Of a stretch of 64,000 bases of DNA, positions 3,197-56,264 are shown in pieces. The position numbers and the translations under genes were made by a program. The DNA is taken from positions 160,001 through 224,000 of the forward strand of contig JAXHNB010000002.1 in the NCBI GenBank assembly GCA_034520945.1. Direction: 5' to 3'. This stretch comes from Trueperaceae bacterium. GTDB lineage: Bacteria > Deinococcota > Deinococci > Deinococcales > Trueperaceae. The notes beneath the pieces are model-generated. The model was not told where the DNA came from. It did no database searches and saw only the letters and a program-made list of their open reading frames with translations. How positions within the stretch are numbered: position 1 is the stretch's first letter; every line of letters begins with the position of its first letter.

Positions 3197-4234
3197 TCAG
3201 TGAAGGCCGCCGTGCGCGTCGGCGAGGGCCATGACCTCGTCCAGGGTGCCCATCGAGTTGGCGCAGGCGTGCCGGCCGACCACGATCGCGCCGCAGGCGT
3301 TGCCCATGCGGGCGGAGGCGTACCAGTCCCATCCTTGCAGGCGGCCGTAGATGAGGCCGGCCGCGAACGCGTCGCCCGCACCGAGCACATTGACGACCTC
3401 GGCGGGGAAGCCGGGTGCCTCGATCACCTCGCCGCTGCGGAGGTAGATGCGGGCGCCCTCGTCGCCCCGCTTGACGACCAGCGCTTCGGGGCCGCTGGGG
3501 ACGGCCAGGAGGTCGCGAACGTCGGCGTCTAAGTCGCCGCTGATTTCGGGCGCCGAGATCTGCTGGTGTTCGACGCGAAGCGCCGCGGGGTCGCGCAGCA
3601 TGGCGGCGTGCACCTCCTCGACCGTGCCGATCGCGACCGTGACCAACGGCAGTGCGGCACGGACCATCCGGCCGAAGGCACGTGGGTCGTACCACTGGTC
3701 CGCCCGGAAGTCGAGGTCCAGGAACACGGGCCGCCCCGCCGCCTGGGCGCGCTCGGCCGCGAACAACGTCGCGGTGGACTGTGGAGGTTTGGCGAGTCCG
3801 GTTCCGGAGATCTCCAACGCCCGGAAGCGCTCGACCTGGGCCGCGAGCACGTCGTCGATGCTCAGTTGCACGTCGGGGGCGGCCTCGCGGTAGAAGACCA
3901 GCGGGAAGCGGCCGTCCGGCTCGATCCCCAGCAGCACCGCGGTGCTGCGCGTGCCGGGCTTGCGGACCACCTGGCGCGTGTCGACCTTTTCGTCGTTCAG
4001 GAAGGTCGTGATGAAGTCGCCGACCTTGTCCTCGCCGACGCCGGTCAGCACGGCGGAGGCCAGGCCCAGCCGGCGGGCGCCGACCGCGATGTTGGTGGGG
4101 CTGCCGCCGACGTAGGCGTTGAACGAGTTGATCCGTTCGAACGGGACGCCGACGTCGTTGGCGTACAGGTCGATCGAACTCCGCCCCATCGTCAGCAGGT
4201 CGAGGGTGTCGTCGCTTGCGCGTTCCTGGCTCAC
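3197..4234 (-). CDS. iolC: 5-dehydro-2-deoxygluconokinase (PfkB family)
   Basis: MGRSSIDLYAND, GGSPTNIAVG, DLDFR and GAGDAF motifs; GTGA overlap with iolE stop. Confidence 0.9.
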   Translation of the reverse strand: MSQERASDDTLDLLTMGRSSIDLYANDVGVPFERINSFNAYVGGSPTNIAVGARRLGLASAVLTGVGEDKVGDFITTFLNDEKVDTRQVVRKPGTRSTAVLLGIEPDGRFPLVFYREAAPDVQLSIDDVLAAQVERFRALEISGTGLAKPPQSTATLFAAERAQAAGRPVFLDLDFRADQWYDPRAFGRMVRAALPLVTVAIGTVEEVHAAMLRDPAALRVEHQQISAPEISGDLDADVRDLLAVPSGPEALVVKRGDEGARIYLRSGEVIEAPGFPAEVVNVLGAGDAFAAGLIYGRLQGWDWYASARMGNACGAIVVGRHACANSMGTLDEVMALADAHGGLH

Positions 4235-5139
4235 AGTCCGAGCTCCTTCAGGTAGCTTCGGTTGCGGGCGGCGCTCTGCTTGGGGCTGCCGAGGCCTGGC
4301 AGCACGTCCTGTTCGACCACCAGCCAGCCGTGGTAGTCCTGCGCCCGCAGCCGTTCGAGGACGGCGGGGAAGTCGACGATGCCCTGGCCGAGTTCCGGGA
4401 ACACGCCCTGGCGCACCATCTCCGGGTAGCCCCATCCGTGCAGCTCCGCCTCCGCCACCACCTCGGGCGAAAAGTCCTTGAGGTGCACCAACTCGATGCG
4501 GTCGCCGTACCGCTCCAGGTCGGGGGCGGGGTCTCCGCCGCCCAGCGCCACGTGCCCCGTGTCGAAGCACAGGCCCACCAGCGCCGGGTCGGTTCGGTCG
4601 AGGAAGGCCTCGATCTCGGCGGGGGTTTCCACGTAGCTCGCGCCGTGCGCGTGGAAGGCGCAGCGAAGGCCGGTCTCGTCGCGGACGGCGCGGGCCACGC
4701 GGTGGGCCCCCTCGGCGTACTGGTCCAGTTCGCGTTCGCCGAGCGCGTGGGCGGGCAGGATGCGCCCGGCGTAGCGGGTGCGGTCGGGCACGCGCGAGTG
4801 GTCGGGGCCCAGGTTGAGGACGGCGTCGTCGCCGCCGACGGCGCGGACCAGCCGCGCGATCTCTAGCGCGCGTTGCACGTTGCGGTCGGTGTACTCGGGG
4901 TCGTCCAAGCGGACCGTGACCCACGACGCGATCAGGGTGAGGTCGCGCGAGGAAAGCGCCTCGGCCAGGCGGTCCGGATCGGTCGGGAGGAAGCCCAGGT
5001 CGCCGAGCTCGGTGCCGGCGTAGCCCGTCTCGGCCAGTTCGTCCAGGAACCGCATGGGGTCGACGCGGGCGTCCTCGGTGCCGGTGTTCTCGATCGTGCC
5101 CCACGAGCAGGGGGCGTTTCCCACGGGCCATCGCGTCAT
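4231..5139 (-). CDS. iolE: Myo-inosose-2 dehydratase (xylose-isomerase-like TIM barrel)
   Basis: GNAPCSWG, DTGH, VHLKD and WLVVEQD motifs; iol operon context. Confidence 0.85.
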   Translation of the reverse strand: MTRWPVGNAPCSWGTIENTGTEDARVDPMRFLDELAETGYAGTELGDLGFLPTDPDRLAEALSSRDLTLIASWVTVRLDDPEYTDRNVQRALEIARLVRAVGGDDAVLNLGPDHSRVPDRTRYAGRILPAHALGERELDQYAEGAHRVARAVRDETGLRCAFHAHGASYVETPAEIEAFLDRTDPALVGLCFDTGHVALGGGDPAPDLERYGDRIELVHLKDFSPEVVAEAELHGWGYPEMVRQGVFPELGQGIVDFPAVLERLRAQDYHGWLVVEQDVLPGLGSPKQSAARNRSYLKELGL

Positions 5140-6161
5140 TGCGTGCCTCCCGTCGATTCAGGGTCGTGTCGTGCGACCTCCACCGGGCGCCCTTCGCGCT
5201 GCGCGTCGCGGGCCGCCAACGCCAGCCGCAGCGACGCTTCGGCGTCCTCCGGGCCGGGCGAGGGGGCGCGGCCGGCGCGGACGTCGTCGACGAACGCCTG
5301 CAGTTCCAGCCGGTAGGCGTCCCGGAAGCGGTCCAGGAAGTAGTGTACGTGATCGCCGTGGATCCCATTCGCGTCGAAGTGCCACGTCTTGGTGGCGCGC
5401 GCGTCTTCGGCGACGAGCTTGCCGGCCTCGCCGTGCACCTCGATGCGCAGGTCGTAGCCGTACACCGTCCGGCGGGTGTTCTGGATCACGCCGAGCGCGC
5501 CGCTGTCGAACTCGAGCGTCACCACGCTGGTGTCGACGTCGCCGTGCTCCGCGAAGTGATCCGCGACCAACACCCGGCCGGTGGCGTGCACGCGGGTTAC
5601 CTCGCCCATCACGAAGCGGGCCAGGTCCAGGTCGTGAATCGCCGAATCGAGGTACAGCCCGCCTGAGGCCGCGACGTACGCGGGCGGCGGTGGGGCGGGA
5701 TCGGAGGAAAGGCTGCGGAACATCTCCGGCTTGCCGAGTTCGCCCTCGCGCACCGCCCGCGCGAGGGCGCCGAACCCGGGATCGAAGCGGCGGTTCAGCC
5801 CGATCTGGAACGGCGCCTGCTGACGCCGCACCGCCGCGAGGGCGTCCCGGGTGGTGGCCAGGTCCAGCGCGACCGGCTTCTCGCAGAACACCGCCAAGCC
5901 GGCCTCGGCGGCGGCCACCACCTGTTCGGCGTGGACGGGGGTGGGGGAGGCGATCACCACCGCGTCGAGGTCGTCGCGCCCCAGCAGCTCGCCGGCGTCG
6001 GCCGCGATGGCCACCCCGCCTGACGCTGCGCGGCGCGCCGCCGCTTCGTCCGCGTCGTACACGCACGCCAGGCTTGCCCCGTCGACCGCGCCGTACAGGT
6101 GCCGCGCGTGCAGCGCGCCGATGCGGCCGGCGCCGAGCACGCCGAACCGGAGCGTACTCAT
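5136..6161 (-). CDS. iolG: Inositol 2-dehydrogenase (Gfo/Idh/MocA)
   Basis: GAGRIG, CEKP, NRRFDP, DSAIHD and YGYDLRIEV motifs. Confidence 0.9.
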   Translation of the reverse strand: MSTLRFGVLGAGRIGALHARHLYGAVDGASLACVYDADEAAARRAASGGVAIAADAGELLGRDDLDAVVIASPTPVHAEQVVAAAEAGLAVFCEKPVALDLATTRDALAAVRRQQAPFQIGLNRRFDPGFGALARAVREGELGKPEMFRSLSSDPAPPPPAYVAASGGLYLDSAIHDLDLARFVMGEVTRVHATGRVLVADHFAEHGDVDTSVVTLEFDSGALGVIQNTRRTVYGYDLRIEVHGEAGKLVAEDARATKTWHFDANGIHGDHVHYFLDRFRDAYRLELQAFVDDVRAGRAPSPGPEDAEASLRLALAARDAQREGRPVEVARHDPESTGGTQ

Positions 6162-8074
6162 GACGCCTCCTCCTCGCTGGGGGCGCGAACGATCACCTGG
6201 CGTTCGCGGGCCCGTTCGTACGCCCGGCGTGCCTCAATGACCGGTTCCTGTGTCGAGGTCTCGGCGACGGGCACGTCCCACCACCCGCCGGTGTCGCCGA
6301 AGTCGGCGGCCTTGTTCGGGTCGACCTCGATGACGACGACGCGTACGCCGCGGGCGTCCCGCGCCGCATGCAGGGCGGCGCGGGCCTGCTCGGCGCTGCG
6401 CGCGGTCGTCGCGTGCGCCCCCATGGACGCGGCGTGCGCGGCGAAGTCGACCGGGAGGTAGGGGCCGTCCGGGCGTCCGCCCCCATTGCGGCCCCGGAGT
6501 TCGACGCCGAAGGTGGGGCTGCCCACGCTGCGTTGCAGCCCGTGGATGGACTGGAAGCCGTGGTTGTCGATCACCACGAAGGTGAGGTCCAGTCCTTCGC
6601 CCACGGCGGTGACGATCTCGGAGTTCATCATCAGGTAGCTGCCGTCCCCCACCAGCACCACCACCGGTCGTTCGGGGTCCGGTTCGGCCAAGCGCACGCC
6701 CAGGCCCGCCGGGATCTCGTACCCCATGCAGCTGTAGCCGTACTCCACGTGATACGCGCGGGGGTCGGTGGGGCGCCACAGCCGCAGCAGGTCGCCCGGC
6801 ATCGAACCGGCCGCGTTGATCACCACCGCGTCACCGCCGAAGGCGTCGTTCACCATCCCCAGCACGCCGCCCTGCGCCAGGCCGTTCTCGTCGCCGAGGT
6901 CGCTTCGTACCCGGTCGACCACGGCGTCCCAAGATTCCTTGAGCGACGCGATGCGGGCACGGCGCGCTTTGCCCGCGGGCGACGCGTGGGTGTCCGCAAG
7001 CGCGCCGTCCAGCGCCTCCAGGCCGACCCGGGCATCGGCGATCAGCGGCAGGGCGGCGAGCTTGTGGGCGTCCATGGCGGCGACGTTGAGGCCGATCACG
7101 GTCGCCGACGCGTCGAAGGCGGTCTTCGACGACGTGGTGAAGTCGCTGAGGCGCGTGCCGACCGCCAGGATTAGGTCCGCCTCGCGAGCCAAGGCGTTGG
7201 CGGCCGAACCGCCGTTCGTGCCGACGGGACCGACCGCCATGTCGTGCGTCCATGGGAGCGAGCCGCGGCCGGCCTGCGTTTCAGCGACGGGCACGCCCCA
7301 TCGCTCGGCGAAGTCGGCCAGCGTGCCTGTGGCGCCGGCGTAGCGCACGCCGCCGCCGGCCACGATCAACGGGGTTCGTGCCCGGCGCCAGGTGGCGACC
7401 GCGTCCGCCAGCGCCTCGCCTTCGGGCGGGGGCCGGCGGATGCGCCAGGTGCGCGGCGCGAAGAACGCCTCGGGCCAGTCGTACGCCTCGACCTGCACGT
7501 CCTCGGGCAGGCTGATCACCACCGCGCCGGTTTCGGCCGGGTCGGTGAGCACCCGCATCGCCTCGGGCAGGGCGTGCAGCAGCTGTTCCGGTCGGCTGAT
7601 GCGCGTGAAGAAACGGGCGACGGGCCGGAAGGCGTCGTTCAGCGACAGGTCGTGCTCGGTGGGGTGCTCCACCTGTTGCAGGACCGGGTCCGGCACGCGG
7701 TTCGCGAAGTAGTCGGACGGCAGCAACAGCACCGGCAGGCGGTTCACCGTGGCGAGCGCCGCGCCACTCAGCATGTTGGTGCTGCCGGGGCCGACCGAGG
7801 CGGTGCAGGCGAGGGTGGCCATGCGGTCGGCGTGCCGCGCGTAGGCGGCGGCGAGGTGCACCTGCGCCTGTTCGTTCTGGGGCCGGTAGAAGGGAAGGTC
7901 GAGGGCGTCACCGTACGCCTCCAACGCCTGACCCAGGCCTGCCACGTTGCCGTGACCGAAGATGCCCCATCCGGCGGGGATCAGGCGTCTGCGCACCCCG
8001 TCCCGCTGGCTGTACTGGACGGCGAGGAAATGCACGAGCGCTTGGGCGACGGTCATGTGGCGTGTCTGGTCCAC
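6158..8074 (-). CDS. iolD: THcHDO hydrolase, ThDP-dependent
   Basis: MTVAQAL, GIFGHGNVAG, PDPVLQQ, EYGYSCMGYE, GDGSYLM and WWDVPV motifs; RBS GAGGAG. Confidence 0.95.
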   Translation of the reverse strand: MDQTRHMTVAQALVHFLAVQYSQRDGVRRRLIPAGWGIFGHGNVAGLGQALEAYGDALDLPFYRPQNEQAQVHLAAAYARHADRMATLACTASVGPGSTNMLSGAALATVNRLPVLLLPSDYFANRVPDPVLQQVEHPTEHDLSLNDAFRPVARFFTRISRPEQLLHALPEAMRVLTDPAETGAVVISLPEDVQVEAYDWPEAFFAPRTWRIRRPPPEGEALADAVATWRRARTPLIVAGGGVRYAGATGTLADFAERWGVPVAETQAGRGSLPWTHDMAVGPVGTNGGSAANALAREADLILAVGTRLSDFTTSSKTAFDASATVIGLNVAAMDAHKLAALPLIADARVGLEALDGALADTHASPAGKARRARIASLKESWDAVVDRVRSDLGDENGLAQGGVLGMVNDAFGGDAVVINAAGSMPGDLLRLWRPTDPRAYHVEYGYSCMGYEIPAGLGVRLAEPDPERPVVVLVGDGSYLMMNSEIVTAVGEGLDLTFVVIDNHGFQSIHGLQRSVGSPTFGVELRGRNGGGRPDGPYLPVDFAAHAASMGAHATTARSAEQARAALHAARDARGVRVVVIEVDPNKAADFGDTGGWWDVPVAETSTQEPVIEARRAYERARERQVIVRAPSEEEAS

Positions 8075-8221
8075 CGGGGTCTCCTCTGGCGTGAAGTCGG
8101 AACGGGGCCGCGCCGAGGGGGCGTACCCCGCACCGGGCCTTCGCGCGGGCGTTTGCGTCGGACCTCTGAAGACGCGGCAAGGCCCCGCGTGCGGGCGACG
8201 TCGCACGCGTGATCGTGAGCG

Positions 8222-8251
8222 ACTATGGCGCCGTGGAGGGGCCGCTGTCAA
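8222..8251 (-). promoter_or_regulatory. Candidate sigma-A promoter of iolDGEC
   Basis: Minus strand TTGACA-18 nt-CATAGT. Confidence 0.45.
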
Positions 8252-8461
8252 GATTGGGTTCGCCCGCGTCGGACGCCTCGGACAGGGGGCGCGCGGACGG
8301 CGGGGTCGTCGCTCGGGACGTTGCGCGCCGTTGCGTCCCTCGTCGCACCGTGCCACCATTCGCGGCGCAACGTCGTCGGCGTGCTCGCACGTGGTGCGGT
8401 ACGTTCAGGTGCCGACCCGGTCGCACGCCATGTTGCTGACGTATCCAAGGGAGGAGCGCTC

Positions 8462-9301
8462 ATGAAGAATCCGTTGCATCCCGCCGCCGGCCGCGGCCCC
8501 GTCCTGGAGGTCACGCCCGCCTCGGCGCAGTGGCGCGACCTGGGGTTCACCGTCGCTCGTTTCGCGAACGGCGACCGGCACCAGGTCGCCAGCCACGGGC
8601 GCGAAATCGCGTTCGTGCCTCAAGCCGGCAGCGTCACCGCGCACGTGGACGGAACGGCGTACACGCTGGCGCGCCGCGGCGTGTTCGAAGCGATGCCGCA
8701 CGTGCTCTACGTGCCGCCCGGCACGGAGGTGACGCTGGAGGCCACAGGCGACGCCGAGATCGCCTGGGGCAGCGCGCCCGCCGACGGGCGCTACCCGGTC
8801 CGACTGTTCGAGCCTAGCGAGATGCGCCGCGAAGTGCGGGGCGGCGGGGCCGCCGTACGCGAGGTGCACCACGTGCTGGCGCACCCGCTGCCGGCGGAAC
8901 GCCTGATCGTGTTCGAGGTGTACGTGCCTGGCGGCGCCTGGTCCGGCTGGCCGCCGCACTGCCACGACGGACGTCAGGGTTCGGCCTACCTGGAGGAGAC
9001 GTACTACTACCGCATCCGGCCCGACACCGGCTTCGCCCTGCACCGCAACTACACCCGCGAGGGGGACATGGACGAGATCGTCGCGGTGCGCGACCGCGAC
9101 CTGATGCTGGTGCCGGGCGGCTTCCATCCGGTCGCCCCGACGCCGGGATCCAACGTCTACTTCCTGAACTTCCTGGCGGGCGACCTGGTGGGCGACGAGC
9201 GCGGTCGGCCGCCGGTCGACGATCCCGATCACGCCTGGATCAAGGAGGCGTGGGGGGACGCGGCGATGACGCTTCCGCTGCGGTTCGACGACGACGGGTG
9301 A
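8462..9301 (+). CDS. iolB: 5-deoxy-glucuronate isomerase
   Basis: WSGWPPHCHD, LEETYYY, GFHPV and YFLNFLAG motifs; RBS GGAGGAG. Confidence 0.9.
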   Translation: MKNPLHPAAGRGPVLEVTPASAQWRDLGFTVARFANGDRHQVASHGREIAFVPQAGSVTAHVDGTAYTLARRGVFEAMPHVLYVPPGTEVTLEATGDAEIAWGSAPADGRYPVRLFEPSEMRREVRGGGAAVREVHHVLAHPLPAERLIVFEVYVPGGAWSGWPPHCHDGRQGSAYLEETYYYRIRPDTGFALHRNYTREGDMDEIVAVRDRDLMLVPGGFHPVAPTPGSNVYFLNFLAGDLVGDERGRPPVDDPDHAWIKEAWGDAAMTLPLRFDDDG

Positions 9302-9310
9302 GGGCGGTCC

Positions 9311-10117
9311 GTGGCGTACGCGCCTGACGCCCGCCCCCTGATCCTCGACGCGTACGACCGCGGCTACGCCCTCCCTGCGTTCAACGTGTGCAGCGTAGAG
9401 ATGGTGCGTGCCTGCATCGAGGCGGCCGAGGAGGTACGTGCGCCGATTCTGCTGCAGACGTATCCGGCGGATTTGGCGCAGCTGCCGGCGCCGCACATGG
9501 CGGCCCTGGTCCGCAGCATGGCCGGCGCGGCCGCGGTGCCGGTCGCGCTGCACATGGATCACGGCCCGGACGACGCCACCGTGTTGGCCTGCCTTCGCGC
9601 CGGCTTCGGCAGCGTGATGCTGGACGGCAGCGACCTGGCGCACGACGCGTTGGAAATGCGGACCGCTCGGCTGGCCTGGGTGGCGCACGCGCAGGGCGCC
9701 GCGCTGGAGGTGGCGGCGGAGAGCTTCGACGCCGGTCGCGGCGCGCGCACCGTTCCCGACGAGGCGCGCCGGCTTCGCGAGGCGGGCAGCGACATGGTGG
9801 CGGTGTCGGTCGGCAGCGAGCACGGCCAGGCCGCCACCCTGGACCTGCCGCTGCTGCGCCGCATCGCCGACGCCGTGCAGGGGCCGTTGGTCCTGCACGG
9901 CGGCAGCGGCATCGGCGCGTCCGACCTGCGCGCGGCATGCACCATGGGCGTCGTCAAGGTGAACGTCGGGTCGGCCTCGTACCGGGCGCTGCGCTCCGTG
10001 TGGCGTGACTCCGCCGACGCGCCTAGCCACCGCGCCGTGTACGAGCGCGCCCGGGCCGCCCTGCGAGCCGTGGCGCTGGAACGGATCGACGCCGCGGGCG
10101 CTGCGGCACGGGCGTAG
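9311..10117 (+). CDS. Class II fructose-bisphosphate aldolase family (IolJ-like)
   Basis: ALPAFNV, LHMDHG, GSEHG, VLHGGSG and KVNV motifs; immediately after iolB. Confidence 0.85.
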   Translation: MAYAPDARPLILDAYDRGYALPAFNVCSVEMVRACIEAAEEVRAPILLQTYPADLAQLPAPHMAALVRSMAGAAAVPVALHMDHGPDDATVLACLRAGFGSVMLDGSDLAHDALEMRTARLAWVAHAQGAALEVAAESFDAGRGARTVPDEARRLREAGSDMVAVSVGSEHGQAATLDLPLLRRIADAVQGPLVLHGGSGIGASDLRAACTMGVVKVNVGSASYRALRSVWRDSADAPSHRAVYERARAALRAVALERIDAAGAAARA

Positions 10118-11092: not shown

Positions 11093-11671
11093 TCATGGCG
11101 CAGCTTCGCCCGGGTCGCCGCCGGTCACTTGGGCGAGGGCGTCCTGGTGGACCGCCAGGTCGCGCGCCGTGAAGAGCACGAACCGGACCAACCGCACGTG
11201 CTGCAGGTTGAGCGCGACGTCGGCGATCGTGCCGAGCGCCACGTGCGCGGCGTCCTCGACCGGGTAGCCGAACGCGCCGGTCGAGATGGCCGGAAACGCG
11301 AGCGACGACATCTCCTTCTTCTCGGCCAAGCGCAACGCATTGCGGTAGCCCTCAGCCAGGAGCTCGTCGCTGGGCGTGTCCAGCCCGTATACGGGGCCGA
11401 GCACGTGAATCACGTAGCGATTGGCGAGCCCATGCCCACCGGTCACGACCGCTTGGCCCGGCCGGATGGGGCCCAGCGGCACGGCCTCCGCTTCGAGCCC
11501 GGATCCCGCCGCCCGATGAATCGCGCCGGCCACGCCCCCGCCGATGCGCAGTTGCGCGTTGGCGGCGTTCACCACGGCGTCCACGTCCGGTTGGCGGACG
11601 ATGTCGCCTTGGACGAGTTCGACGTGGACCCGTCCGAACGTCCGGCTGGTGGGTGTTGGTGACTGTGCCAT
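11093..11671 (-). CDS. Macro domain protein (ADP-ribose binding/hydrolase, YmdB-like)
   Basis: QGDI, DAVVNAAN, GGGVAGAIH, VIHVLGP and FPAISTGAFGYP motifs. Confidence 0.9.
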   Translation of the reverse strand: MAQSPTPTSRTFGRVHVELVQGDIVRQPDVDAVVNAANAQLRIGGGVAGAIHRAAGSGLEAEAVPLGPIRPGQAVVTGGHGLANRYVIHVLGPVYGLDTPSDELLAEGYRNALRLAEKKEMSSLAFPAISTGAFGYPVEDAAHVALGTIADVALNLQHVRLVRFVLFTARDLAVHQDALAQVTGGDPGEAAP

Positions 11672-11800
11672 GGGGACCTCCGTCCCTCAGCGTAGCGCCG
11701 AAGCGCGGGTCCCACGCGTCTCCTGCGAGGCCGTCCAAGACCGGAGATGAGCCATGTTGTCGCGTTTGGGACGGCTCCGGGGGTGGGACGAATTTCCCTG

Positions 11801-11828
11801 TTGGCGCGCGGTGTACCCCCGGTAGCGT
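11801..11828 (+). promoter_or_regulatory. Candidate promoter of the exported copper/heme operon
   Basis: TTGGCG-16 nt-TAGCGT about 180 nt upstream of ATG 12007. Confidence 0.35.
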
Positions 11829-12006
11829 TCCTGTGTACGCCTGATGAGGAGCCTTGCATCGGCAGCGCGCTCCGGGCGTTCGGGCCTGCGACCCGTAACG
11901 GTCATCACTGGGTTCGGAAAGGAGGGGTTCTGGAGGACGTCGTGTCGTTTCCAGAAGCAACAACGCACACGCTGTCAATGCAATGCCCACTCGAAGGGAG
12001 TCCGCA

Positions 12007-12513
12007 ATGAACCGATTCGTCAAGACCATGACGGCGCTCGTCGCCGCCACTACGCTCCTCGGCGCCGCCTGGGCCCAAGGCTTGGGGGAAGACCTCACCG
12101 TCCGCATGGGCGAGATGTACTTCCAGATCGAAGGTCAGGAAAAGAACGCGCCGATCGAACTCGAAGCCGGCGTGCCCTACCGCATCACTTTCGTCAACGA
12201 AGGCGACGTGGAGCACCGCGTCAAGTTCGGCCGTAGCGTCGAGGCCGAAGAAGGCGTCCCCTTCGACTACGCCGAGCACCTGTTCGACGGGGTGTTCACG
12301 CGCGCGACCGGCATGGCCGGCAACCGGCAATTCTCGGTCGACACCGGTCAGCTGCTGGAGCTCGACGTGCAGCCCGGTGCCGTGGTGCTGGTCAGCTTCA
12401 CGTTGCCGACCTCCACGCGGGGCGAGTGGGAGATCGGCTGCTTCGTCCCCGCGACGCGTGACACGCCGAACCACTACATCGCCGGCATGCGCGCTCCGCT
12501 CATCATCGAGTGA
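12007..12513 (+). CDS. Exported cupredoxin with type-1 Cu ligand set
   Basis: Sec signal ending AWAQ; NEGDVEH, then GEWEIGC-FVPATRDTPN-H-YIAG-M (His/Cys/His/Met). Confidence 0.8.
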   Translation: MNRFVKTMTALVAATTLLGAAWAQGLGEDLTVRMGEMYFQIEGQEKNAPIELEAGVPYRITFVNEGDVEHRVKFGRSVEAEEGVPFDYAEHLFDGVFTRATGMAGNRQFSVDTGQLLELDVQPGAVVLVSFTLPTSTRGEWEIGCFVPATRDTPNHYIAGMRAPLIIE

Positions 12514-12545
12514 CGTCGCATACCACAAAACGAACGGGAGAATTC

Positions 12546-13904
12546 ATGATGAAGGTACGCATTTTCATTCTCAGCCTGAGCATCGCCGCCTTGGCAATGT
12601 TCGGCGCCGCTACGGCGCAGGACGACGGCGACTGGGCCACCGAGTGGTCCGACATGGTCAACGTGCACCTGTTGGCCGACCTCGATTCCTCCGGTCCGCC
12701 CGCGTGGGATCCCGAAGAGCACCCGGACGTGTTCATCACCACCGAGGGCATGGGCTACTCCGGCCTGATGGGCTCGCCCAACTCGCCCGGCCTGGCGATC
12801 ATCGACGCCAACACCTACGAGCCCGTCGCGTCGCAGAGCTACGAGCTGGAAGGCGCCGACGAGTACTTCGAGCCGCACGGCCTGGGCGTCTCGTCCGACG
12901 GCCGCTGGATCTACCTGCCGACCGGCACCAGCCCCGGCTTCGGTGCCGTGGGGACCGGCCGCTTGCTCATCATCGACGCCTACACGCTCAAGATCGACAA
13001 GATCCTCTCCACGCCTACCAACCCCCACCACGCCAAGAGCTTCACCCACGCCGATGGGCGCGAGCTGGTGTTGGCCTACACCTTCCGTGAGGGTGGGTTC
13101 TACATCCTCGACCCCAACGACGACAACCGCATGGTCGGGAGCGTCCCCAACCGCGAGCTGCAGGGCAACGGCTATCTCGCCTTCACCACCCCCGACGGGG
13201 AGTACCTGCTGATCAGCACGCGTCCCCCCTCCGGCGTGGACGCCCACGGGTTCGTGTCGGTCATCGACACCGAAACCTGGGAGCTGGTCCGCAACATCGA
13301 GGTGCTGGACTCCGATCCCATCTGGATCGCCATCACCGCCGACGGAAACGAAGCGCTCGTGACGGGCGGGCACGACAGCAACCTGACGCGCCTGTCGCTC
13401 GAAGGGGACGTCTCCGACTGGCACGTCGACGGCGCCGCCAACGCGGCCGCGCTCGGGCCCTACGGCGTGCACTACAACTGGGACGAGGACCGCGCGTTCG
13501 TGGTCAGCAAGGGCGAAGCCACCCACAACCGCGGCATCACCCTCGGCGAGGTGAACCCCGTCATCATGCAGCCTCCGCCCCTGCACTCCTGGGCGCCGGG
13601 TCCCGTCGCCACGCACCACACCGCTTGCATCCGTGGCGACCACGGTACCGTGCACCCGGACATCGACCGGGACGAGCTGTGGATCACCTGCAACGGTAGC
13701 TTCGAGATCGTCGTGTTCGACATGTTCGCCAAGGAGGTCAAGGAGCGCATCCCCATGCCGAACGGGGGCAGCACGCACTCCGGCGCCTTCGTTCACTACG
13801 AGGCCGACCCGATGGCGTCGACCGAAGGCACCGTCCTGTCGGACCAGAACGGCATGCACGGTCCCGCACTGCAGACCAAGCGGGAGATCCTCGGTCTCGA
13901 ATAG
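12546..13904 (+). CDS. Exported YVTN/YncE-like beta-propeller protein, His-rich, function unknown
   Basis: Signal ending ATAQ; repeated blades EPHGLGVSSDGRWIY, YLAFTTPDGEYLL, VSVIDTETWELVRNI, PIWIAITADG and GPYGVHY. Confidence 0.75.
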   Translation: MMKVRIFILSLSIAALAMFGAATAQDDGDWATEWSDMVNVHLLADLDSSGPPAWDPEEHPDVFITTEGMGYSGLMGSPNSPGLAIIDANTYEPVASQSYELEGADEYFEPHGLGVSSDGRWIYLPTGTSPGFGAVGTGRLLIIDAYTLKIDKILSTPTNPHHAKSFTHADGRELVLAYTFREGGFYILDPNDDNRMVGSVPNRELQGNGYLAFTTPDGEYLLISTRPPSGVDAHGFVSVIDTETWELVRNIEVLDSDPIWIAITADGNEALVTGGHDSNLTRLSLEGDVSDWHVDGAANAAALGPYGVHYNWDEDRAFVVSKGEATHNRGITLGEVNPVIMQPPPLHSWAPGPVATHHTACIRGDHGTVHPDIDRDELWITCNGSFEIVVFDMFAKEVKERIPMPNGGSTHSGAFVHYEADPMASTEGTVLSDQNGMHGPALQTKREILGLE

Positions 13905-13919
13905 ACCGGCGGAACGCTC

Positions 13920-13945
13920 GGTGGGGAGGCGCGCGCCTCCCCACC
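13920..13945. repeat. Perfect 26-bp intercistronic palindrome/stem-loop
   Basis: GGTGGGGAGGCGC|GCGCCTCCCCACC; no U-tract. Confidence 0.8.
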
Positions 13946-13968
13946 CCCTTCGGAGGGAGTCCAGCACC

Positions 13969-14571
13969 ATGACCACGAGTTCCTATGTTCGTGTCGCGAT
14001 TCTTGCCCTCTTGATGCCGTTCGCGTTCCTTGCGTCGGCGCAGGAGGAGGCGCCCGACCCGGAGTTGGTCAAGCGCGGGCAAGATCTTTACTACAACGTG
14101 GCCGGAACGGGCTGCGTCACCTGTCACGGCGTCGCGGGCCTCGGCGACATCGGCATCGGCCCGAACATCCGCGGCGTGCCGGTGGTCCGCATCGAGGGCG
14201 CTCTGGATGCTGCCGAGGAGATGGCGTTCCTGCATCCGGTGCTCAGCGAGGACGACCTGGTGGCGCTGGAGGCCTACCTGGCGTACGTCGAAACCCTCGT
14301 TCCCGCCACGACCACCGTACGCGGTGGTGCGTTCCAACCCGACGAGGTCAGGTTGCCTGCCGGCCAGCAGGTGCAGTTGATCGTCGACAACGGAAACCGC
14401 TCACCCTGCACCTTGGTCGTCGACGGTGTCGACGTGCAGGCCACCATCGACGGGCGCAGCACCGGCGACGTGTCGTGGACCACCGGCAGTGCCGGTACGC
14501 AGACCGTGGCCTATTGCCAGGACGAGCCCGACGTCCAACTCACGGTTCGCATCGTCGAACCCGAGGAGTGA
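13969..14571 (+). CDS. Exported monoheme cytochrome c fused to a cupredoxin-like domain
   Basis: Signal ending ASAQ; RGQDLY...CVTCHG...IGPNIRG...EM; C-terminal FQPDEVRLPAGQQVQLIVDN. Confidence 0.85.
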   Translation: MTTSSYVRVAILALLMPFAFLASAQEEAPDPELVKRGQDLYYNVAGTGCVTCHGVAGLGDIGIGPNIRGVPVVRIEGALDAAEEMAFLHPVLSEDDLVALEAYLAYVETLVPATTTVRGGAFQPDEVRLPAGQQVQLIVDNGNRSPCTLVVDGVDVQATIDGRSTGDVSWTTGSAGTQTVAYCQDEPDVQLTVRIVEPEE

Positions 14572-14575
14572 GACC

Positions 14576-15586
14576 ATGACGAGCCTGACGCGACGACTGG
14601 CGGGCCTCCTGATCGTGGTCGCCCTGGTGATGGGCGCTGCGATCGCACAGGACGACCATTCGGACGACGGTGAGGCGGAAGCCCTCACCATGAACGAGGC
14701 CATGCAGATGCTCACGCGCAGCGGAAGGGTGCCGCTGGCCGACGAGCACGACCACGACCAGATTCACGTCGACGTGCTGTACGCGCACCCGATCGTGTAC
14801 CGCTCGGGCGGCAACGAAGTGCCCGAGGCGGTGTACGAGGGCGACGAAGTGATCGTGTTCGTCACCGAGAACATCCACGCCGGCGAGTTCAGCTGGGATC
14901 CGGTCAAATTCGACCTGTACGTCGACGGGCGCGGCCCCATCGCGCCGGTGCGGTCCGAACAGGTGTCGCCCGACCCGCACCACCGCGCCACGCGGCACCA
15001 TTACCGCCTGGAGGAGGGCGAGGGCCCGCTATTGCGCAGCGACAGCTCGCGCTTGGAGCTGCGGCCCCAGGCCGGCAGCAGCAAGGCCGAGTTCGCGTGG
15101 GATCTCCCGCTCGAACTGGGCGAGGTGCGCTTCCACGGCCTCGAACCCACCGATGAGCCCCTCGACCTGAGCGACGCGCCGGTGTTGCGCGTCGAAGCGA
15201 CCGAAGACACCTACGTGCACTCGGGCCTCGTGGTGCCGGTGGGCGAGCCCGTCGTGGTCTTGTTCCGCAACGACACCGACGACGAACACCATTTCCACGT
15301 CCTGGACCTCGCCATCGACGGCACCATGCGCTGGCTCCAGACCGCGGGCGAGGCCGACCTGTTCACCGACGCCGAGCTGCGCCAGGCCACCCAGCTGCCC
15401 GACCACATCTGCGACAGCGACAGCGGCATCTGCCCCACGGGGCAGAGCGTGCACCTGCACGCCAACCCCCACGGGTCCGATGCGATCGCCTTCGTGCCGA
15501 AGGAGGTCGGCACCTTCGAGGTGGTGGACCCGCTGTTCCCGGAGCGGAGCGCGGAGTTCGAGGTCGTCGCCGGGGACGCTGGCTGA
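14576..15586 (+). CDS. Exported His-rich two-domain protein with cupredoxin-like C-terminus (putative metal chaperone)
   Basis: Signal ending AIAQ; DEHDHD, ENIH, DPHH, NDTDDEHHFH, HICDSDSGICP, HLHANPH, FVPKEVGTFEV. Confidence 0.65.
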   Translation: MTSLTRRLAGLLIVVALVMGAAIAQDDHSDDGEAEALTMNEAMQMLTRSGRVPLADEHDHDQIHVDVLYAHPIVYRSGGNEVPEAVYEGDEVIVFVTENIHAGEFSWDPVKFDLYVDGRGPIAPVRSEQVSPDPHHRATRHHYRLEEGEGPLLRSDSSRLELRPQAGSSKAEFAWDLPLELGEVRFHGLEPTDEPLDLSDAPVLRVEATEDTYVHSGLVVPVGEPVVVLFRNDTDDEHHFHVLDLAIDGTMRWLQTAGEADLFTDAELRQATQLPDHICDSDSGICPTGQSVHLHANPHGSDAIAFVPKEVGTFEVVDPLFPERSAEFEVVAGDAG

Positions 15587-15633: not shown

Positions 15634-15670
15634 AGCGACCTGCGTAGGGACGGTTTCTGCGCAGGTCGCT
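15634..15670. terminator. Hairpin between convergent genes
   Basis: Perfect 11-bp arms AGCGACCTGCG / CGCAGGTCGCT. Confidence 0.55.
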
Positions 15671-16376
15671 ATCGTTCGTCGTCGAGCGATTCGAGGTCGG
15701 ATGCTCGGGGTGCGGTCGAGCGCCATTGTGCGAAGGGGACGCCCACGGTGTCCCGACTCACCATCACGGCCGGGCGAGTGTCGAGGCTGGCCAGCCACGA
15801 CCCGAGACGGGGCAGGTCGGTGTCGGGCAGCCCGAAGCGCCGGTAGCCGGACAGCCACGCGTACACGCAAACGTCGGCGGCGGAGGGTCCAGGAAGGTCA
15901 GGGGCTGCCACGATCCATCGGCCGCCGGACCGCTCGAGCGCCTCTTCGACGGCATGTAGATGCCGGCGCCCCTCCGCGAGCAGGGTCTCCGCGCGGACGT
16001 GATCGATGCCCGCCTCAGGCGGCTCGATCAACTGCCAGTACAGGTGATGGCTGACGTCCCGAAGGGGACCGCTGGACCAGTCGATCCACGTCAGGACGTC
16101 ACGGCGGGCGCGTTCGTCGGCGGGAAATGAGCGTGGTTCGGGATGGGCCACCTCGAGGTGCAGCAGAATGTCCAGCGAGTCCAGGTGGGCGCCGTCCTCA
16201 TCGAAGTAGGCAGGGACCTTTCCTCGGGGATTCAGTGCGAGGTAGGCGGCCGTCTTTTGCTCCCGGGTCCTCAGGTCGATCTCGACACGGTCGAACCGCA
16301 CGCCCTTTTCGTGCAGGGCGATGGATACCTTGAAGCAGTGCGGGCTCCGGCGCGAGCTGAACAGCGTGGGGCGCAT
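15669..16376 (-). CDS. Glutathione S-transferase family protein
   Basis: SPHCFKV...LHEKG, LNPRGKVP, DSLDIL and SAADV motifs; start uncertain. Confidence 0.85.
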   Translation of the reverse strand: MRPTLFSSRRSPHCFKVSIALHEKGVRFDRVEIDLRTREQKTAAYLALNPRGKVPAYFDEDGAHLDSLDILLHLEVAHPEPRSFPADERARRDVLTWIDWSSGPLRDVSHHLYWQLIEPPEAGIDHVRAETLLAEGRRHLHAVEEALERSGGRWIVAAPDLPGPSAADVCVYAWLSGYRRFGLPDTDLPRLGSWLASLDTRPAVMVSRDTVGVPFAQWRSTAPRASDLESLDDER

Positions 16377-16387
16377 CGGGTACGGCA

Positions 16388-17173
16388 TCATGCAGGCGCG
16401 ACTGCGCGCCACACGCGCAACCAGTTGGCGTACGCGAGGTCGCGTAGGGCGGGTTCTTCATGGCCGGCCTTGCGGAGCACGTCGAGGACCTTGGGTAGAC
16501 CACGGGCGTCGCCGATGGCGTCGAGCACGTCCCAGAAGCCCGCTTCGGTGAGGTGCGAGACGTCGAGCAGCACGCCCAGGCGCTCGCAGGCCGCTACCAG
16601 TTCCCGGCCCAGGTCCGTCAGGCCGGGACCAAGGTCGGGCGTGGACGGAAAGGCGAGGGGGACGCCATGGGCGAACGCGTTCGGTCGGCTCCAGGCGAGC
16701 CCCAGCGAACGCACGCCGCGGTCGTACAGGGCGGCGAGTGTTTCGAGGTCTGGATCGATGGCGTCGGCCCCTTCCACGTGGAGGGCGGCCGCCAGCACGT
16801 CGTCGCGGAGGCACGATTCTGCCTCGTCCGGATGCGTCACCACGCGAACGCTGCCGCCCGACGTGGCGGCGAACTCGTGCAGCCAATCGGCCATCGCGTA
16901 CACGTGCCGGCGCGCGACGGCGGGATCCAGGGCGGGCGGGAGTGGAAGCTGGTAGCGGCCCGTATCGTCCGTGTGCGCGGCGAAATCGTTGGGGGCAACC
17001 TGCGAGGGGACGAAGGCCGAGAAAAACCCGCCGGCCATGCCCCCTTCGCGCATGCGGGGGAGATCGAGGTGCCCCTCGTCGCCCTTCGCGAGCACGTCTC
17101 GCTGCCCGCTGCGTTCCGGCCAGCGAACGACGGTCAGCAGGTCGTTGTGGCCATCGAAGACAGGAATCGTCAT
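16388..17173 (-). pseudogene. Membrane dipeptidase (M19) with internal in-frame deletion
   Basis: DGHND, HVEGAD, GLTDLG and DVSHL present; THSN/RN and GSDFDG segments missing between FWDV and AIGDA. Confidence 0.75.
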
Positions 17174-53517: not shown

Positions 53518-53744
53518 GCCGGGGCCGCGAGGGGAGGCCGCGGGGCGTACCGTGCGCATCCCCCGCCCTCGCCCGAGCCCGCCGCCTGACCCACGTCGTG
53601 GCCGGCGGCGTCTGCGCGCCGGGCCTGGTACGATCTCGGCCGGACTCACGACGGGAGAACGATGTCGATGCCTACCTACGCTTTGCGCCCCCCCACCCTG
53701 CCCACGCCGCGGCGTCCGCTGCGGCCGGAACGCGCGGTGCTCTC

Positions 53745-55391
53745 ATGAGCGACGAACGGCACGACGTCGTGATCGTAGGCGGCGGGTCGGCGGGATCGGC
53801 CCTCGCCAACCGGCTCAGCGCCGATTCCGAAGCCCGCGTGCTGGTGCTGGAGGCCGGGCGCCCCGATTCGTGGTGGGACGTCTTCATCCACATGCCGGCG
53901 GCGCTCCCGTTCCCGATCGGGAGCCGATTCTACGACTGGCAGTACGAGTCCGAACCGGAACCGCACATGGGGGGCCGCCGCGTGTACCACGCGCGCGGCA
54001 AGATTCTGGGCGGGTCGTCCAGCATCAACGGGATGATCTTCCAGCGCGGCAACCCCATGGACTACGACCGCTGGGCGCAGGAGCCCGGCATGGAGGCCTG
54101 GGACTACGCGCACTGCCTGCCGTACTTCAAGCGGATGGAGACCTGCATGGCGGGGGCGGACGACTGGCGCGGCGGGGACGGTCCGCTGGTGGTGGAGCGC
54201 GGCCCCGCCGAGAACCCGCTGTTCGGGGCGTTCTTCGAGGCGGCCGAGCAGGCCGGCTATAGGCGCACCGACGACGTCAACGGGTACCGCCAGGAGGGGT
54301 TCGCGCGCTTCGACCGCAACGTGCACCGCGGCCGCCGTCTCTCCGCCTCGCGCGCCTACCTGCATCCCGTGCGCCACCGCGACAACCTCACCGTGCGGAC
54401 CCGCGCCTTCGTGACCCGCATCCTGTTCGAGGGCACCCGCGCGACCGGCGTCGAGTACGTGCACCGTGGCCGGACGCACCGCGCGCTGGCCGACGAGGTG
54501 ATCCTGTGCGGCGGCGCGATCGCCACGCCGCAGCTGCTGCAACTGTCCGGCGTCGGCGAGGGCGAGCACCTGCGCTCGCTGGGCATCGAGCCGGTCGCCG
54601 ACCTTCCCGGCGTGGGGCAGAACCTGCAGGACCACCTCGAGGCCTACATCCAGTACGCCAGCAAGCAACCGGTATCGATGGCGCCGTGGCTGGCGTGGTG
54701 GCGCAGGCCGTGGGTCGGCTTCCAATGGTTGTTCTTCCGGCGCGGGCCGGGCGCCACCAACCACTTCGAGGCCGGCGGGTTCGTCCGCTCCAACGACCGC
54801 GTGGACTGGCCCAACCTGATGTTCCACTTCCTGCCCTTGGCCATCCGCTACGACGGAACCTCGCCCGCCACGGGGCACGGCTACCAGGTGCACGTCGGGC
54901 CGATGTTCTCCGACGTGCGCGGCGAACTGAAGATCACCTCGACCGACCCGTCGGTCAAGCCGTCGATGCGGTTCAACTACCTGTCGACGGAGAACGACCG
55001 ACGCGAGTGGATCGAGGCGATCCGCGTGGCGCGCGACATCCTCACCCAGCCCGCCTTCGAGCCGTACAACGCCGGCGAGCTGTCGCCCGGCCCGGCGGTC
55101 CAGACCGACGAGGAGATCCTGGACTGGGTGGCCCGTGACGCGGAGACCGCCCTGCACCCCTCCTGCACCGCCAAGATGGGCACCGACGAGATGGCGGTGG
55201 TGGACCCGTCCACCATGCGGGTGCACGGCGTGGAGGGCCTACGCGTGGTGGACGCCTCGGTGATGCCCCGCATCACCAACGCCAACATTTACGCGCCGGT
55301 GATGATGATCGCCGAGAAGGCCGCCGACCTGATCCTCGGCAAGGCGCCGTTGCCCCCGTCCGACGCCCCGGTACACCGGACCCGCTCGTAG
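53745..55391 (+). CDS. betA: Choline dehydrogenase (GMC oxidoreductase)
   Basis: [46 protein letters not shown]. Confidence 0.9.
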
Positions 55392-55475
55392 GGCCGGATC
55401 GCGCACGCCTGTCACCGTCGCGACGGGGTCGGCGGTCGTACCTTCGCGCTGCTAGCATGCCGCGTGGAGGTCGGG

Positions 55476-56264
55476 ATGAGGGCTGGACCCTCGCCGAAGC
55501 TGGTGACGTACCTCGTGTGGGGCATGGGTCTGGCCGCATGGGCGTTGGCGGTGGGGCCCGCCGCGCCACGGGAGGCGCCGGCGGCCGGGGAGGCCGTGGC
55601 GCTGCAGGCCGGCGTGCGTACCGGCGAGGCGTTGCTTCCCGACCTTCAGGTGGTGCGGCCGCATGACCTGGAGCTGATCGGGTCCCGGGCCGAGGGCGAT
55701 CTGAGGCTGAAGTTCACCACCGTGATCTGGAACGCCGGCGACGGACCGATGGAGGTGCGTGGGTCCCGCAACGAGGCGACCGGCGATCTCGAGGTGTACC
55801 AGTACCTGCATGCGTCCAGTGGCGACGTGCGGCGCGACCGGCGGGTCGGCCGCTTCGACTACGAGCACCGGCACGGCCACCTCCACCTGGTGAGCTTCGC
55901 GCAGTACAGACTCTGGTCGCTGGACGGCGACGGGGCCCCGCAGGAGGTGGTGGCCGAGAACGCCAAGGTCGGCTTCTGCCTGATGGACAACCTGGTGATC
56001 GACGAGGACCGTGCCCCCGAAGGCCCCGTCTACGGCGGGTGCGAGGCCGAGGTGCAGGGCATATCCGTCGGGTATGGCGACGCGTACCTGGCCGACCTGT
56101 TCGAGCAGGACTTGCACGTCTCGGACGTGCCGGACGGCCGCTATCGGCTCGTCAACGTGGCCAACCCGGACCGTGCGCTGCGAGAGGCCCGGTACGACAA
56201 CAACCAGGCGGCCGTGGACCTGGTCTTGCGGGAGGGGCGCGTGGCTCCCGTCACGGCACGCTGA
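55476..56264 (+). CDS. Exported lysyl oxidase-like protein
   Basis: LLPDL, NAGDGP, HRHGHLH, KVGFCLMD, QGISVGYGDAY, ANPD...EARYDNN. Confidence 0.82.
   Translation: MRAGPSPKLVTYLVWGMGLAAWALAVGPAAPREAPAAGEAVALQAGVRTGEALLPDLQVVRPHDLELIGSRAEGDLRLKFTTVIWNAGDGPMEVRGSRNEATGDLEVYQYLHASSGDVRRDRRVGRFDYEHRHGHLHLVSFAQYRLWSLDGDGAPQEVVAENAKVGFCLMDNLVIDEDRAPEGPVYGGCEAEVQGISVGYGDAYLADLFEQDLHVSDVPDGRYRLVNVANPDRALREARYDNNQAAVDLVLREGRVAPVTAR

Follow-up and report, generated by a model that had tools for sequence, protein, structure and literature searches.

What reaction might be carried out, and at what metal center, by a secreted β-propeller whose axis appears to be lined with histidine and tyrosine? The question is raised by a 64,000-nt stretch of Trueperaceae DNA (hereafter the window), in which positions 12546-13904 of the plus strand encode the propeller protein P0001. 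The propeller enzymes with copper at their hub that are compared here, nitrous oxide reductase (NosZ, including its lactonase-type form L-NosZ) and thiocyanate dehydrogenase (TcDH), catalyze environmentally weighty reactions, namely the removal of N2O and the oxidation of thiocyanate. A first-pass annotation of the gene had placed histidines and tyrosines at blade-entry positions of the type that supply copper ligands in NosZ and TcDH, and had suggested a different multi-copper or copper-tyrosyl site. We consider, with a little more conviction than doubt, that P0001 serves as catalytic subunit in an undescribed and widespread family of Sec-exported copper oxidoreductases, which resemble NosZ and TcDH and act on a small substrate at a probably multinuclear hub.

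Fold and hub of the P0001 propeller

The P0001 gene comprises 452 codons followed by a stop, and an RBS-like GGGAGAA (RBS, ribosome-binding site) lies 5' of its ATG. With a GC content at third codon positions (GC3) of 0.91, the plus frame is the coding frame. An antisense frame of 500 amino acids (12474-13976, minus strand) is fully open because the GC content is 71.6%, and was rejected as a composition artifact rather than a gene. The product carries a Sec-type signal peptide (residues 1-24, encoded at 12546-12617) without an RR motif, and a Tat-like motif occurs in just three of 112 aligned homologues. Among its 19 His, 13 Tyr and two Cys, the translation places each residue of interest to the first-pass annotation at the position claimed for it: H111 (EPH), H161/H162 (PHH), Y210, Y306 (GPY), H327, C361, H366 (GDH), C382 and H411 (STH).

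Searches of Pfam, NCBIfam and the PDB sequences with P0001 returned nothing significant: no Pfam gathering score was reached, the best NCBIfam score was 16.5 bits against a cut-off of 287, and residues 340-452 searched alone against the PDB gave chance matches only. Judged by these searches, the family is unnamed in all of these resources, and no description of it was found in literature searches; the DPANN 'NosZ-like' proteins (PMC10936187) are CuA-only and unrelated. A word-seeded search, in which 8000 candidates were scored, yielded 312 homologues at E <= 0.001; the nearest that carry a name are hypothetical proteins of Trueperaceae metagenome-assembled genomes (MAGs) with 65-66% identity. 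When 1.84 billion cluster representatives (50% identity) were searched with a profile, 4591 matched at E <= 0.001, a number that falls to 487 at E <= 1e-10 and to 100 at E <= 1e-30; generic YVTN repeats account for the weaker matches, and the 100 strongest include fragments and long multi-repeat YVTN proteins. A scan of genomes, one for each species, detected 87 encoding stretches; 80 loci, all from MAGs, were kept (designated by L-numbers). These span at least 10 phyla, including abundant sediment and groundwater lineages, and their hosts are found in the Trueperaceae, Chloroflexota (Dehalococcoidia, SAR202, Limnocylindria), Woeseiaceae, Arenicellaceae, Porticoccaceae, Alphaproteobacteria, Myxococcota, Acidimicrobiia, Acidobacteriota, Fraserbacteria, Acetothermia and Nitrosopumilales.

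The AlphaFold2 model of P0001, based on the 112 aligned homologues (predicted local distance difference test, pLDDT, 92.2; predicted template-modeling score, pTM, 0.90), is built of four-stranded blades. According to its secondary structure, the first strands begin near residues 112, 160, 208, 258, 305 and 364; the blade-2 start at 112 was taken from the repeat alignment, and DSSP marks only 114-115. Residues 61-98 give three more strands, and an extra strand at 413-419 can be read as the innermost strand of blade 1, which would bring the model to seven blades. We count seven because seven-bladed YVTN models superpose on residues 57-444 with template-modeling (TM) scores by target of 0.74-0.87 and the profile of the 112 homologues (A1) matches the YVTN propeller 1l0q (E = 5.6e-12); Foldseek likewise pairs the model with a YVTN propeller (1.4e-14). 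Against the PDB, Foldseek returned generic propellers only (TM by query 0.43-0.59), among them a YVTN S-layer protein, NirN, NirF, YncE, NosZ, cd1 nitrite reductase, amine dehydrogenase heavy chains and the Pelomicrobium TcDH, and the ESM Atlas neighbors are generic YVTN, lactonase and YncE proteins only. P0001 belongs to the YVTN/lactonase-type seven-bladed propeller fold class, and to that class only.

Within this fold, H111, H161/H162, Y210, Y306, H366 and H411 each lie between -2 and +2 of an inner-strand start, on six blades, so the blade-entry placement proposed for them holds to within two residues of the innermost strands; the equivalent position of blade 5 is W260. H327 is not at a blade entry. 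It sits in the K322-G-E-x-x-H-N328 loop joining strands B and C of blade 6, which general propeller topology would put on the same face as the strand entries. From the same topology it follows that the named His and Tyr residues would line the axis.

Conservation was followed in two sets, one of 77 propeller genes (76 from the 80 genome loci, plus that of the window) and the other of the 112 aligned homologues. Eight residues, H111, H161, H162, D189, Y306, K322, D365 and H366, are invariant in all 77 genes. H411 is retained in 76, the exception being a truncated gene, E324 in 76, N328 in 75, H327 in 73 and E109 in 64, and Y418 is invariant or nearly so. In the second set, H111, H161, H162, Y306, H327 and H366 are present in 112/112 sequences, H411 in 111/112 and Y210 in 110/112. 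The alignment check called for in the first-pass annotation therefore finds the named histidines and Y306 invariant or near-invariant in both sets. Conserved histidines make up six of the 19 in P0001 and are exactly H111, H161, H162, H327, H366 and H411, the other 13 being variable. Six of the nine His and Tyr residues conserved at 94% or more fall within the 35 of 428 positions that make up the strand-entry windows, which were defined post hoc (hypergeometric p = 1.4e-5).

The cysteines behave differently. C361 and C382 are both present in 58 of the 77 genes, both absent from 19 and never found singly, and since they occur together or not at all, we rejected them as ligands; the pair noted earlier is real and co-varies, but it is probably a dispensable disulfide that flanks D365-H366. 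A galactose-oxidase-type copper-tyrosyl site has a Tyr-Cys cross-link beside the copper. Such a site was also rejected, as both cysteines are absent from the 19 genes while Y210 and Y306 persist; a tyrosyl ligand free of such a link could still be present.

Position 210 divides the family: 65 genes have Tyr there, 11 have His and one has Gly. The His210 forms all fall into a single clade (99% support in the Shimodaira-Hasegawa-like approximate likelihood ratio test, SH-aLRT, of a quick IQ-TREE tree), in which changes of W260 to Gly and R363 to Ser accompany that of Y210 to His. Tyr-type genes (65, including P0001) have six hub histidines and the His-type paralogues seven. As metal ligands, tyrosine and histidine can stand in for one another. 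Thus the mixed His/Tyr set to which the first-pass annotation drew attention is a property of the Tyr-type genes but not a fixed one; because Y210 is His throughout a paralogous clade, it is a subfamily trait. Two Trueperaceae MAGs hold both types (L003 with L074, and L004 with L072). On the L004 contig, the chromosome of Trueperaceae bin86, the Tyr-type match (5998-6996) starts at query residue 120, and this gene may be truncated or frameshifted. L075 carries two tandem His-type copies (3674-7602), each with a fused cytochrome c, and two or three divergent propeller copies are present in each of L033 and L049.

Relation to known copper enzymes and other propellers

In NosZ, the CuZ center is bound by seven histidines (H132, H133, H181, H323, H378, H429 and H490), of which blade II supplies two, blade IV none and the C-terminal closure strand one (PMC11573801). 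P0001 repeats the doublet, as H161/H162, and the histidine on the C-terminal strand, as H411, which bears out the NosZ part of the earlier claim that its residues occupy ligand-type positions. Both are periplasmic seven-bladed propellers in which histidines at inner-strand starts form, or in P0001 would form, a hub site, and both have a doublet on one blade, a ligand-free blade and a histidine on the closure strand. Starting at the doublet and going round the hub, P0001 presents HH, Y (H in the His-type paralogues), none, H327 (with Y306), H366, H411 and H111, where NosZ presents HH, H, none, H, H, H, H; the His-type paralogues reproduce the NosZ order. Sec-type export is shared with clade II NosZ. 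A cupredoxin-fold partner domain is a further likeness, and some clade II enzymes also have a heme c domain (bioRxiv 2024.06.05.597523). In contrast, P0001 has six hub histidines and two tyrosines instead of seven histidines, its doublet lies in the third blade from the N-terminus instead of the second, and electrons would enter proteins of its family via heme c or type-1 copper. We regard the resemblance as one of construction, with homology undemonstrated.

Could P0001 nevertheless be a divergent N2O reductase with a CuZ-type [4Cu:S] cluster, within or sister to L-NosZ? The shared ring order of the His-type paralogues would fit, as would the combination of a lactonase/YVTN propeller with a cupredoxin partner seen in L-NosZ-like proteins (PMC11033732), and in relatives the cupredoxin-like domains show a weak similarity to the C-terminal domain of NosZ (E = 2e-7 to 3e-4). 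However, P0001 scores 10.5 bits (E = 0.13, residues 375-421 only) where the clade II model TIGR04246 has a cut-off of 625, and against the L-NosZ model NF052460.1, with a cut-off of 700 bits, it has no match at E <= 1; relatives reach 14.8 (P0105), 19.6 (the L073 paralogue) and 58.1 bits (P0158). Where clade I (TIGR04244) and clade II enzymes have seven hub histidines, P0001 and the 65 Tyr-type genes have six and only the 11 His-type paralogues seven, and the doublet of P0001 lies one blade further from the chain ends than that of NosZ. A CuA domain is also lacking: its motif (C-x3-C-x3-H-x2-M) occurs in none of 169 full-length relatives (400-900 aa), and the cupredoxin-like domain of P0124, the product of the gene downstream of P0001, has no conserved histidine. 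Finally, no nosD, nosF, nosY or nosL gene was found in Pfam scans of the window or among 45 neighbor genes of eight related loci. We consider membership in this group very improbable.

L-NosZ, the lactonase-type clade III NosZ, was reportedly described by He et al. in Nature in 2025. It shares with P0001 a seven-bladed propeller of the lactonase/YVTN type, distinct from the canonical Nos propeller, together with a cupredoxin domain (PMC11033732), and both have been reported from groundwater and marine metagenomes. Its hosts belong to the Nitrospirota, Nitrospinota, Desulfobacterota and similar phyla (PMC13477213), whereas the P0001 family occurs in Trueperaceae, Chloroflexota, Woeseiaceae, Arenicellaceae, Porticoccaceae, Acidimicrobiia and Nitrosopumilales. 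This comparison was made via the NCBIfam model and the descriptions in PMC11033732, PMC13477213, PMC13122619 and PMC13502197.

TcDH is a soluble periplasmic enzyme whose seven-bladed propeller houses three copper ions in its tunnel, and it passes electrons to cytochrome c552, a c-type cytochrome (PMC9456337); it is exported by the Tat pathway, and copper-transport genes are found at its loci (PMC6504805). The seven-bladed propeller, the cytochrome c partner and nearby copper-handling genes recur in the P0001 family, and Foldseek aligns P0001 with the Pelomicrobium enzyme, pmTcDH (8q9x, 8yu5), at a TM of 0.55. By sequence, membership was rejected, as the A1 profile reaches only E = 0.073 (8yu5_A) and 0.095 (8q9x_A), and phmmer with P0001 finds nothing. 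The Sec-type signal peptide of P0001 and the rarity of Tat-like motifs among its homologues also set it apart (PMC6504805), and so do the accessory genes, which are Cop or Cus at TcDH loci and Sco1, PCuAC, YtkA-like and DsbD-type in the P0001 family. The distinction from TcDH is drawn on sequence score, signal peptide and accessory genes. By every criterion tested, sequence comparison places P0001 outside NosZ, L-NosZ and TcDH; the family follows the same construction principle, yet fails each of these membership tests.

Two further explanations stem from the other propellers that Foldseek retrieved. The heavy chain of methylamine dehydrogenase is non-catalytic and has no His hub, its cofactor being carried by the small subunit. 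Heavy chains of methylamine and aromatic amine dehydrogenase match the P0001 model with TM by target of 0.62-0.67, and they too are periplasmic propellers whose genes accompany those of a type-1 cupredoxin and a c-type cytochrome, partners that are named in the titles of entries 2mta and 2h47. P0001 might accordingly be a scaffold or binding subunit, comparable to such a heavy chain or to YncE, with a partner performing the chemistry. No counterpart of the small catalytic subunit gene is seen conserved beside the propellers of the family, though, and the most conserved residues of P0001 are the polar His/Tyr/Asp/Lys set of the hub, not a surface patch, so we rate this the least probable of the explanations considered.

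Alternatively, the hub may hold an organic or protein-derived cofactor, such as a heme-d1-like tetrapyrrole, pyrroloquinoline quinone (PQQ), or a quinone or cross-link formed from Y306 and K322, with the histidines serving as axial ligands or acid-base groups. The best Foldseek matches include NirN, NirF and cd1 nitrite reductase, the relative P0121 touches the gathering score of the cd1-type family PF02239 (NirS, NirN, NirF; Cytochrom_D1) with 25.6 versus 25.5 bits, and the conservation of Y306, K322 and Y418 would be in keeping with such a cofactor. Propeller domains of the cd1 type that bind heme d1 have eight blades. We rejected an eight-bladed fold for P0001, whose model has seven and which itself has no PF02239 match, and likewise membership in the cd1-type family. 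Moreover, no heme d1 or PQQ biosynthesis genes were found in the window or the eight loci scanned, and the copper chaperones of related operons (see below) would lack an explanation, unless the cofactor is generated by copper, as happens in amine oxidases. We would be surprised if an organic cofactor proved to be the answer.

Partner genes and the case for copper

P0001 is the second of four consecutive plus-strand genes, P0003, P0001, P0124 and P0004, separated by 32, 64 and 1 nt (Table 1). The upstream gene encodes a secreted cupredoxin, P0003, with type-1-like ligands. Its orthologues lie directly upstream of the propeller in L001, L003, L005, L006 and L012 and keep the His, Cys and His ligands, the fourth being Met in L003, L006 and L012 and His in L001 and L005; the window copy is not recognized by Pfam. 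Downstream, P0124 joins a class-I cytochrome c domain (Pfam Cytochrom_C, 6.6e-5) to a cupredoxin-like domain (Cupredoxin_1, 5.9e-6), and C49, C52, H53, M85 and C183 are invariant among 25 sequences. Because it has no conserved histidine, the cupredoxin-like domain holds neither a CuA nor a type-1 site. The last gene encodes P0004, with E..H and HHR motifs in its N-terminal domain and EHHFH and H-x-C-x6-C-x6-H-x-H in the C-terminal one. Foldseek pairs its AlphaFold2 model (pLDDT 83.4) best with 4hcf, a copper-bound Cupredoxin_1 protein (TM by target 0.81-0.88), over the C-terminal domain only, and on this model it is that domain alone that can be called cupredoxin-like. The C-terminus of P0004 (15500-15586) reads D-P-L-F-P-E-R, where most orthologues (L001, L073, L074) end in C-P-x-H-x-x-M and L005 has His for Met; this putative copper site is lost in the window, and EHHFH and H-x-C...C...H-x-H are retained. 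A search for sigma-70 promoters gave no match, and the sole terminator-like site lies within P0004. A perfect hairpin between P0001 and P0124, with a fold energy not unusual for its composition when compared with shuffled sequence (z = -1.33), may be an intercistronic processing or stability element.

Table 1. Coordinates of the operon genes, the hub codons of P0001 and associated elements in the window
Feature	Position	Strand	Characteristics and basis
P0003, secreted 176-aa cupredoxin	11983..12513	+	Type-1-like H77, C153, H165, M170 (translation); stops 32 nt before P0001
P0001, 452-aa secreted seven-bladed β-propeller, presumed catalytic subunit	12546..13904	+	Translation, AlphaFold2, Foldseek
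H111 codon, blade-2 inner-strand entry	12876..12878	+	His 77/77, 112/112
H161-H162 doublet, blade-3 inner strand	13026..13031	+	Both His 77/77, 112/112
Y210 codon, blade-4 inner strand	13173..13175	+	Tyr 65, His 11, Gly 1 of 77
Y306 codon (G-P-Y-G), blade-6 inner strand	13461..13463	+	Tyr 77/77, 112/112
K322-G-E-A-T-H327-N328 loop, blade 6 strands B-C	13509..13529	+	K322 77, E324 76, H327 73, N328 75 of 77
C361 (13626-13628) and C382 (13689-13691), probable disulfide bracketing D365-H366	13626..13691	+	Co-occurrence in 77 genes
D365-H366, blade-7 inner-strand entry	13638..13643	+	Both 77/77
H411 codon (S-T-H-S-G), entry of C-terminal strand 413-419	13776..13778	+	His 76/77
Perfect 11-bp GC-rich hairpin in the 64-nt P0001-P0124 gap	13920..13945	+	No T-run after it
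P0124, secreted 200-aa protein, class-I cytochrome c domain and cupredoxin-like domain	13969..14571	+	C49-x-x-C52-H53, M85; Pfam
P0004, secreted 337-aa protein, two His-rich beta-sandwich domains	14573..15586	+	Starts 1 nt past the P0124 stop

Partners of the same kinds recur in relatives. A P0124-type cytochrome c gene is fused to the propeller at 13 of the 80 loci, separate at 49 and undetected at 18, so that 62 loci have a cytochrome c gene fused or within 6 kb, mostly immediately downstream. Among the 169 full-length relatives, 28 have a CxxCH motif beyond residue 380, and 10 distant ones a C-terminal type-1 C..H..M cupredoxin motif. This recurrent fusion to cytochrome c or a blue copper domain argues that the family sits in an electron-transfer chain. 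Downstream genes were counted at the 54 loci whose sequence extends for 4 kb or more downstream. At 43 of them the P0004-type N-domain, with conserved E..H and HH, forms one protein with a DsbD/CcdA-type membrane domain that has conserved Cys; Sco1/SenC is present at 16, a YtkA-like protein at 12 and PCuAC at four, and at least one of these is found at 44. Sco1 and PCuAC are established copper chaperones, and the YtkA family includes a CuA assembly factor. Since an invariant His/Tyr hub is linked to cytochrome c, to cupredoxins and, in relatives, to copper chaperones, P0001 is probably a copper redox enzyme. Of the multi-copper site suggested at the outset, it is the copper redox role that this neighborhood favors, with a type-1 cupredoxin upstream, a cytochrome c downstream, both fused to the propeller in relatives, and Sco1, PCuAC and YtkA-like proteins in related operons.

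A different kind of hub chemistry must be weighed here, in which the site accommodates just one ion, or else a non-copper metal (Fe(II), Mn, Zn or Ca), the protein is an oxygenase or hydrolase, and the cytochrome and cupredoxins are loosely associated. Carotenoid oxygenases use four hub histidines to bind Fe(II), and lactonase/PON-type propellers bind Ca or Zn. Conserved carboxylates and an asparagine stand beside the histidines of P0001 (E109 in 64/77 genes, D189, E324, D365 and N328), there are weak SGL/lactonase-type Pfam matches in relatives, and the identity of the metal is drawn from context. Fusion to cytochrome c (13/80 loci, 28/169 proteins) or to a type-1 cupredoxin (10/169), however, argues for obligate electron transfer, the recognized chaperone families of the operons (Sco1, PCuAC, YtkA-like) handle copper, and six to seven invariant histidines exceed what a mononuclear site needs. 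We therefore hold this explanation to be unlikely.

Several observations nevertheless weigh against a copper oxidoreductase. Structural similarity does not favor the copper enzymes, as TM by query is 0.52-0.59 for NosZ and 0.55 for TcDH compared with 0.43-0.56 for NirN, cd1 nitrite reductase, YncE and amine dehydrogenase heavy chains. Six histidines with carboxylates could also bind iron, manganese or zinc; the identity of copper and the number of ions are deduced from context, and the convergence of the residues on the hub from topology. Positions that tell the Tyr-type and His-type clades apart are not significantly enriched at the hub (4/14, p = 0.10). No cytochrome c gene was detected at 18 of the 80 loci, some of which are short contigs and three archaeal (L056, L068, L070), and Sco1, found at just 16 of 54, could serve other cuproproteins. 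In the window, Pfam scans revealed no Sco1, PCuAC or YtkA gene, P0004 lacks the terminal C-x-x-H-x-x-M motif that most orthologues retain, and the cupredoxin-like domain of P0124 has no histidine ligands.

If P0001 is a copper redox enzyme, we propose that H411, H111, H161/H162, Y210, Y306 and H366, together with the H327 loop, form a ring of six histidines and two tyrosines that holds the copper center at the hub, with D365, E324 and K322 standing behind it. This center would most likely contain more than one ion and could be built along the lines of the CuZ center in NosZ and the tri-copper site in TcDH. A small substrate might bind at the hub, and a small inorganic nitrogen, sulfur or oxygen species is our guess. 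Electrons could pass between the hub and the heme of P0124, in this lineage potentially also the type-1 cupredoxin P0003, and then the respiratory chain; TcDH provides a precedent for the dehydrogenase direction. Because export is Sec-type, the metal would be inserted outside the cytoplasm. Candidate helpers for this insertion are P0004 in the window and, in relatives, its N-domain with the DsbD-type membrane protein, potentially assisted in delivery by Sco1, PCuAC or YtkA-like proteins.

Surrounding genes and implications

The genes that flank the operon in the window are unrelated to it and include those for a Macro-domain protein, a GST, a peptide ABC transporter and inositol-catabolism-like proteins. 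The inositol-catabolism-like cluster (4231-10117) encodes a xylose-isomerase-like TIM barrel, a GFO/IDH/MocA dehydrogenase, a thiamine pyrophosphate (TPP) enzyme, a KduI/IolB-family protein and a class-II aldolase. A GST-N-domain protein adjoins the operon in the window (15669-16412, minus strand) and also in L031 (within 11353-12914), L046 and L048. At 53598-56264 on the plus strand, directly 3' of a GMC oxidoreductase, lies a gene for a lysyl-oxidase-family protein (PF01186, E = 1.4e-14), presumably another type of copper-quinone enzyme.

Related loci show additional associations. A second YVTN propeller is encoded in 19 of the 54 loci; proteobacterial operons carry it between the DsbD-type gene and Sco1 (for example L040 9456-10616, L013 10595-11797, L031 9478-10668 and L057 9547-10692). 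The 18 copies that were aligned lack a His hub and share a conserved Cys-His dipeptide at the C-terminus, and this propeller may be an assembly factor. Beside the operon of Chloroflexota relatives stands a kinase with two GAF domains and HisKA_3, accompanied by a LuxR/NarL-type regulator, in 13-15 of the 54 loci (L010 2688-5181, L052 216-1964, L055 3886-4569, L073 10469-12220); we take this double-GAF architecture to recall heme-based O2/NO sensors, which would make it a lead for the inducing signal. Cytochrome c genes are absent from the Nitrosopumilales loci (L056 7248-7850, L070 4216-4749). In its place, L056 has a gene for a secreted protein of 201 aa with an H...C...C-x5-C-x2-H pattern that weakly matches the NosZ C-terminal cupredoxin region (TIGR04244, E = 1.8e-4) and may be a copper-based substitute for the heme partner. 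A TauE/SafE sulfite-exporter-family gene follows in three loci, and rhodanese genes occur in six of 54; this faint sulfur flavor of some operons is too sparse for interpretation.

A bolder proposal is that the Tyr-type and His-type proteins together constitute a fourth, unrecognized lineage of hub-copper propeller enzymes beside NosZ, L-NosZ and TcDH, in which the His-type would be a new enzyme that reduces or oxidizes a small nitrogen oxide (N2O or NO) and the Tyr-type, with Tyr in place of one His, would have a copper-tyrosine center with different chemistry. We think this decidedly unlikely, but if it were true, the propeller family could be a missing step in the nitrogen or sulfur cycling of sediments and groundwater. 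Under the copper oxidoreductase reading that we favor, the two types offer a natural variant pair of a multi-His hub site for bioinorganic comparison, and identifying the substrate of the P0001 family would extend the periplasmic respiratory repertoire.

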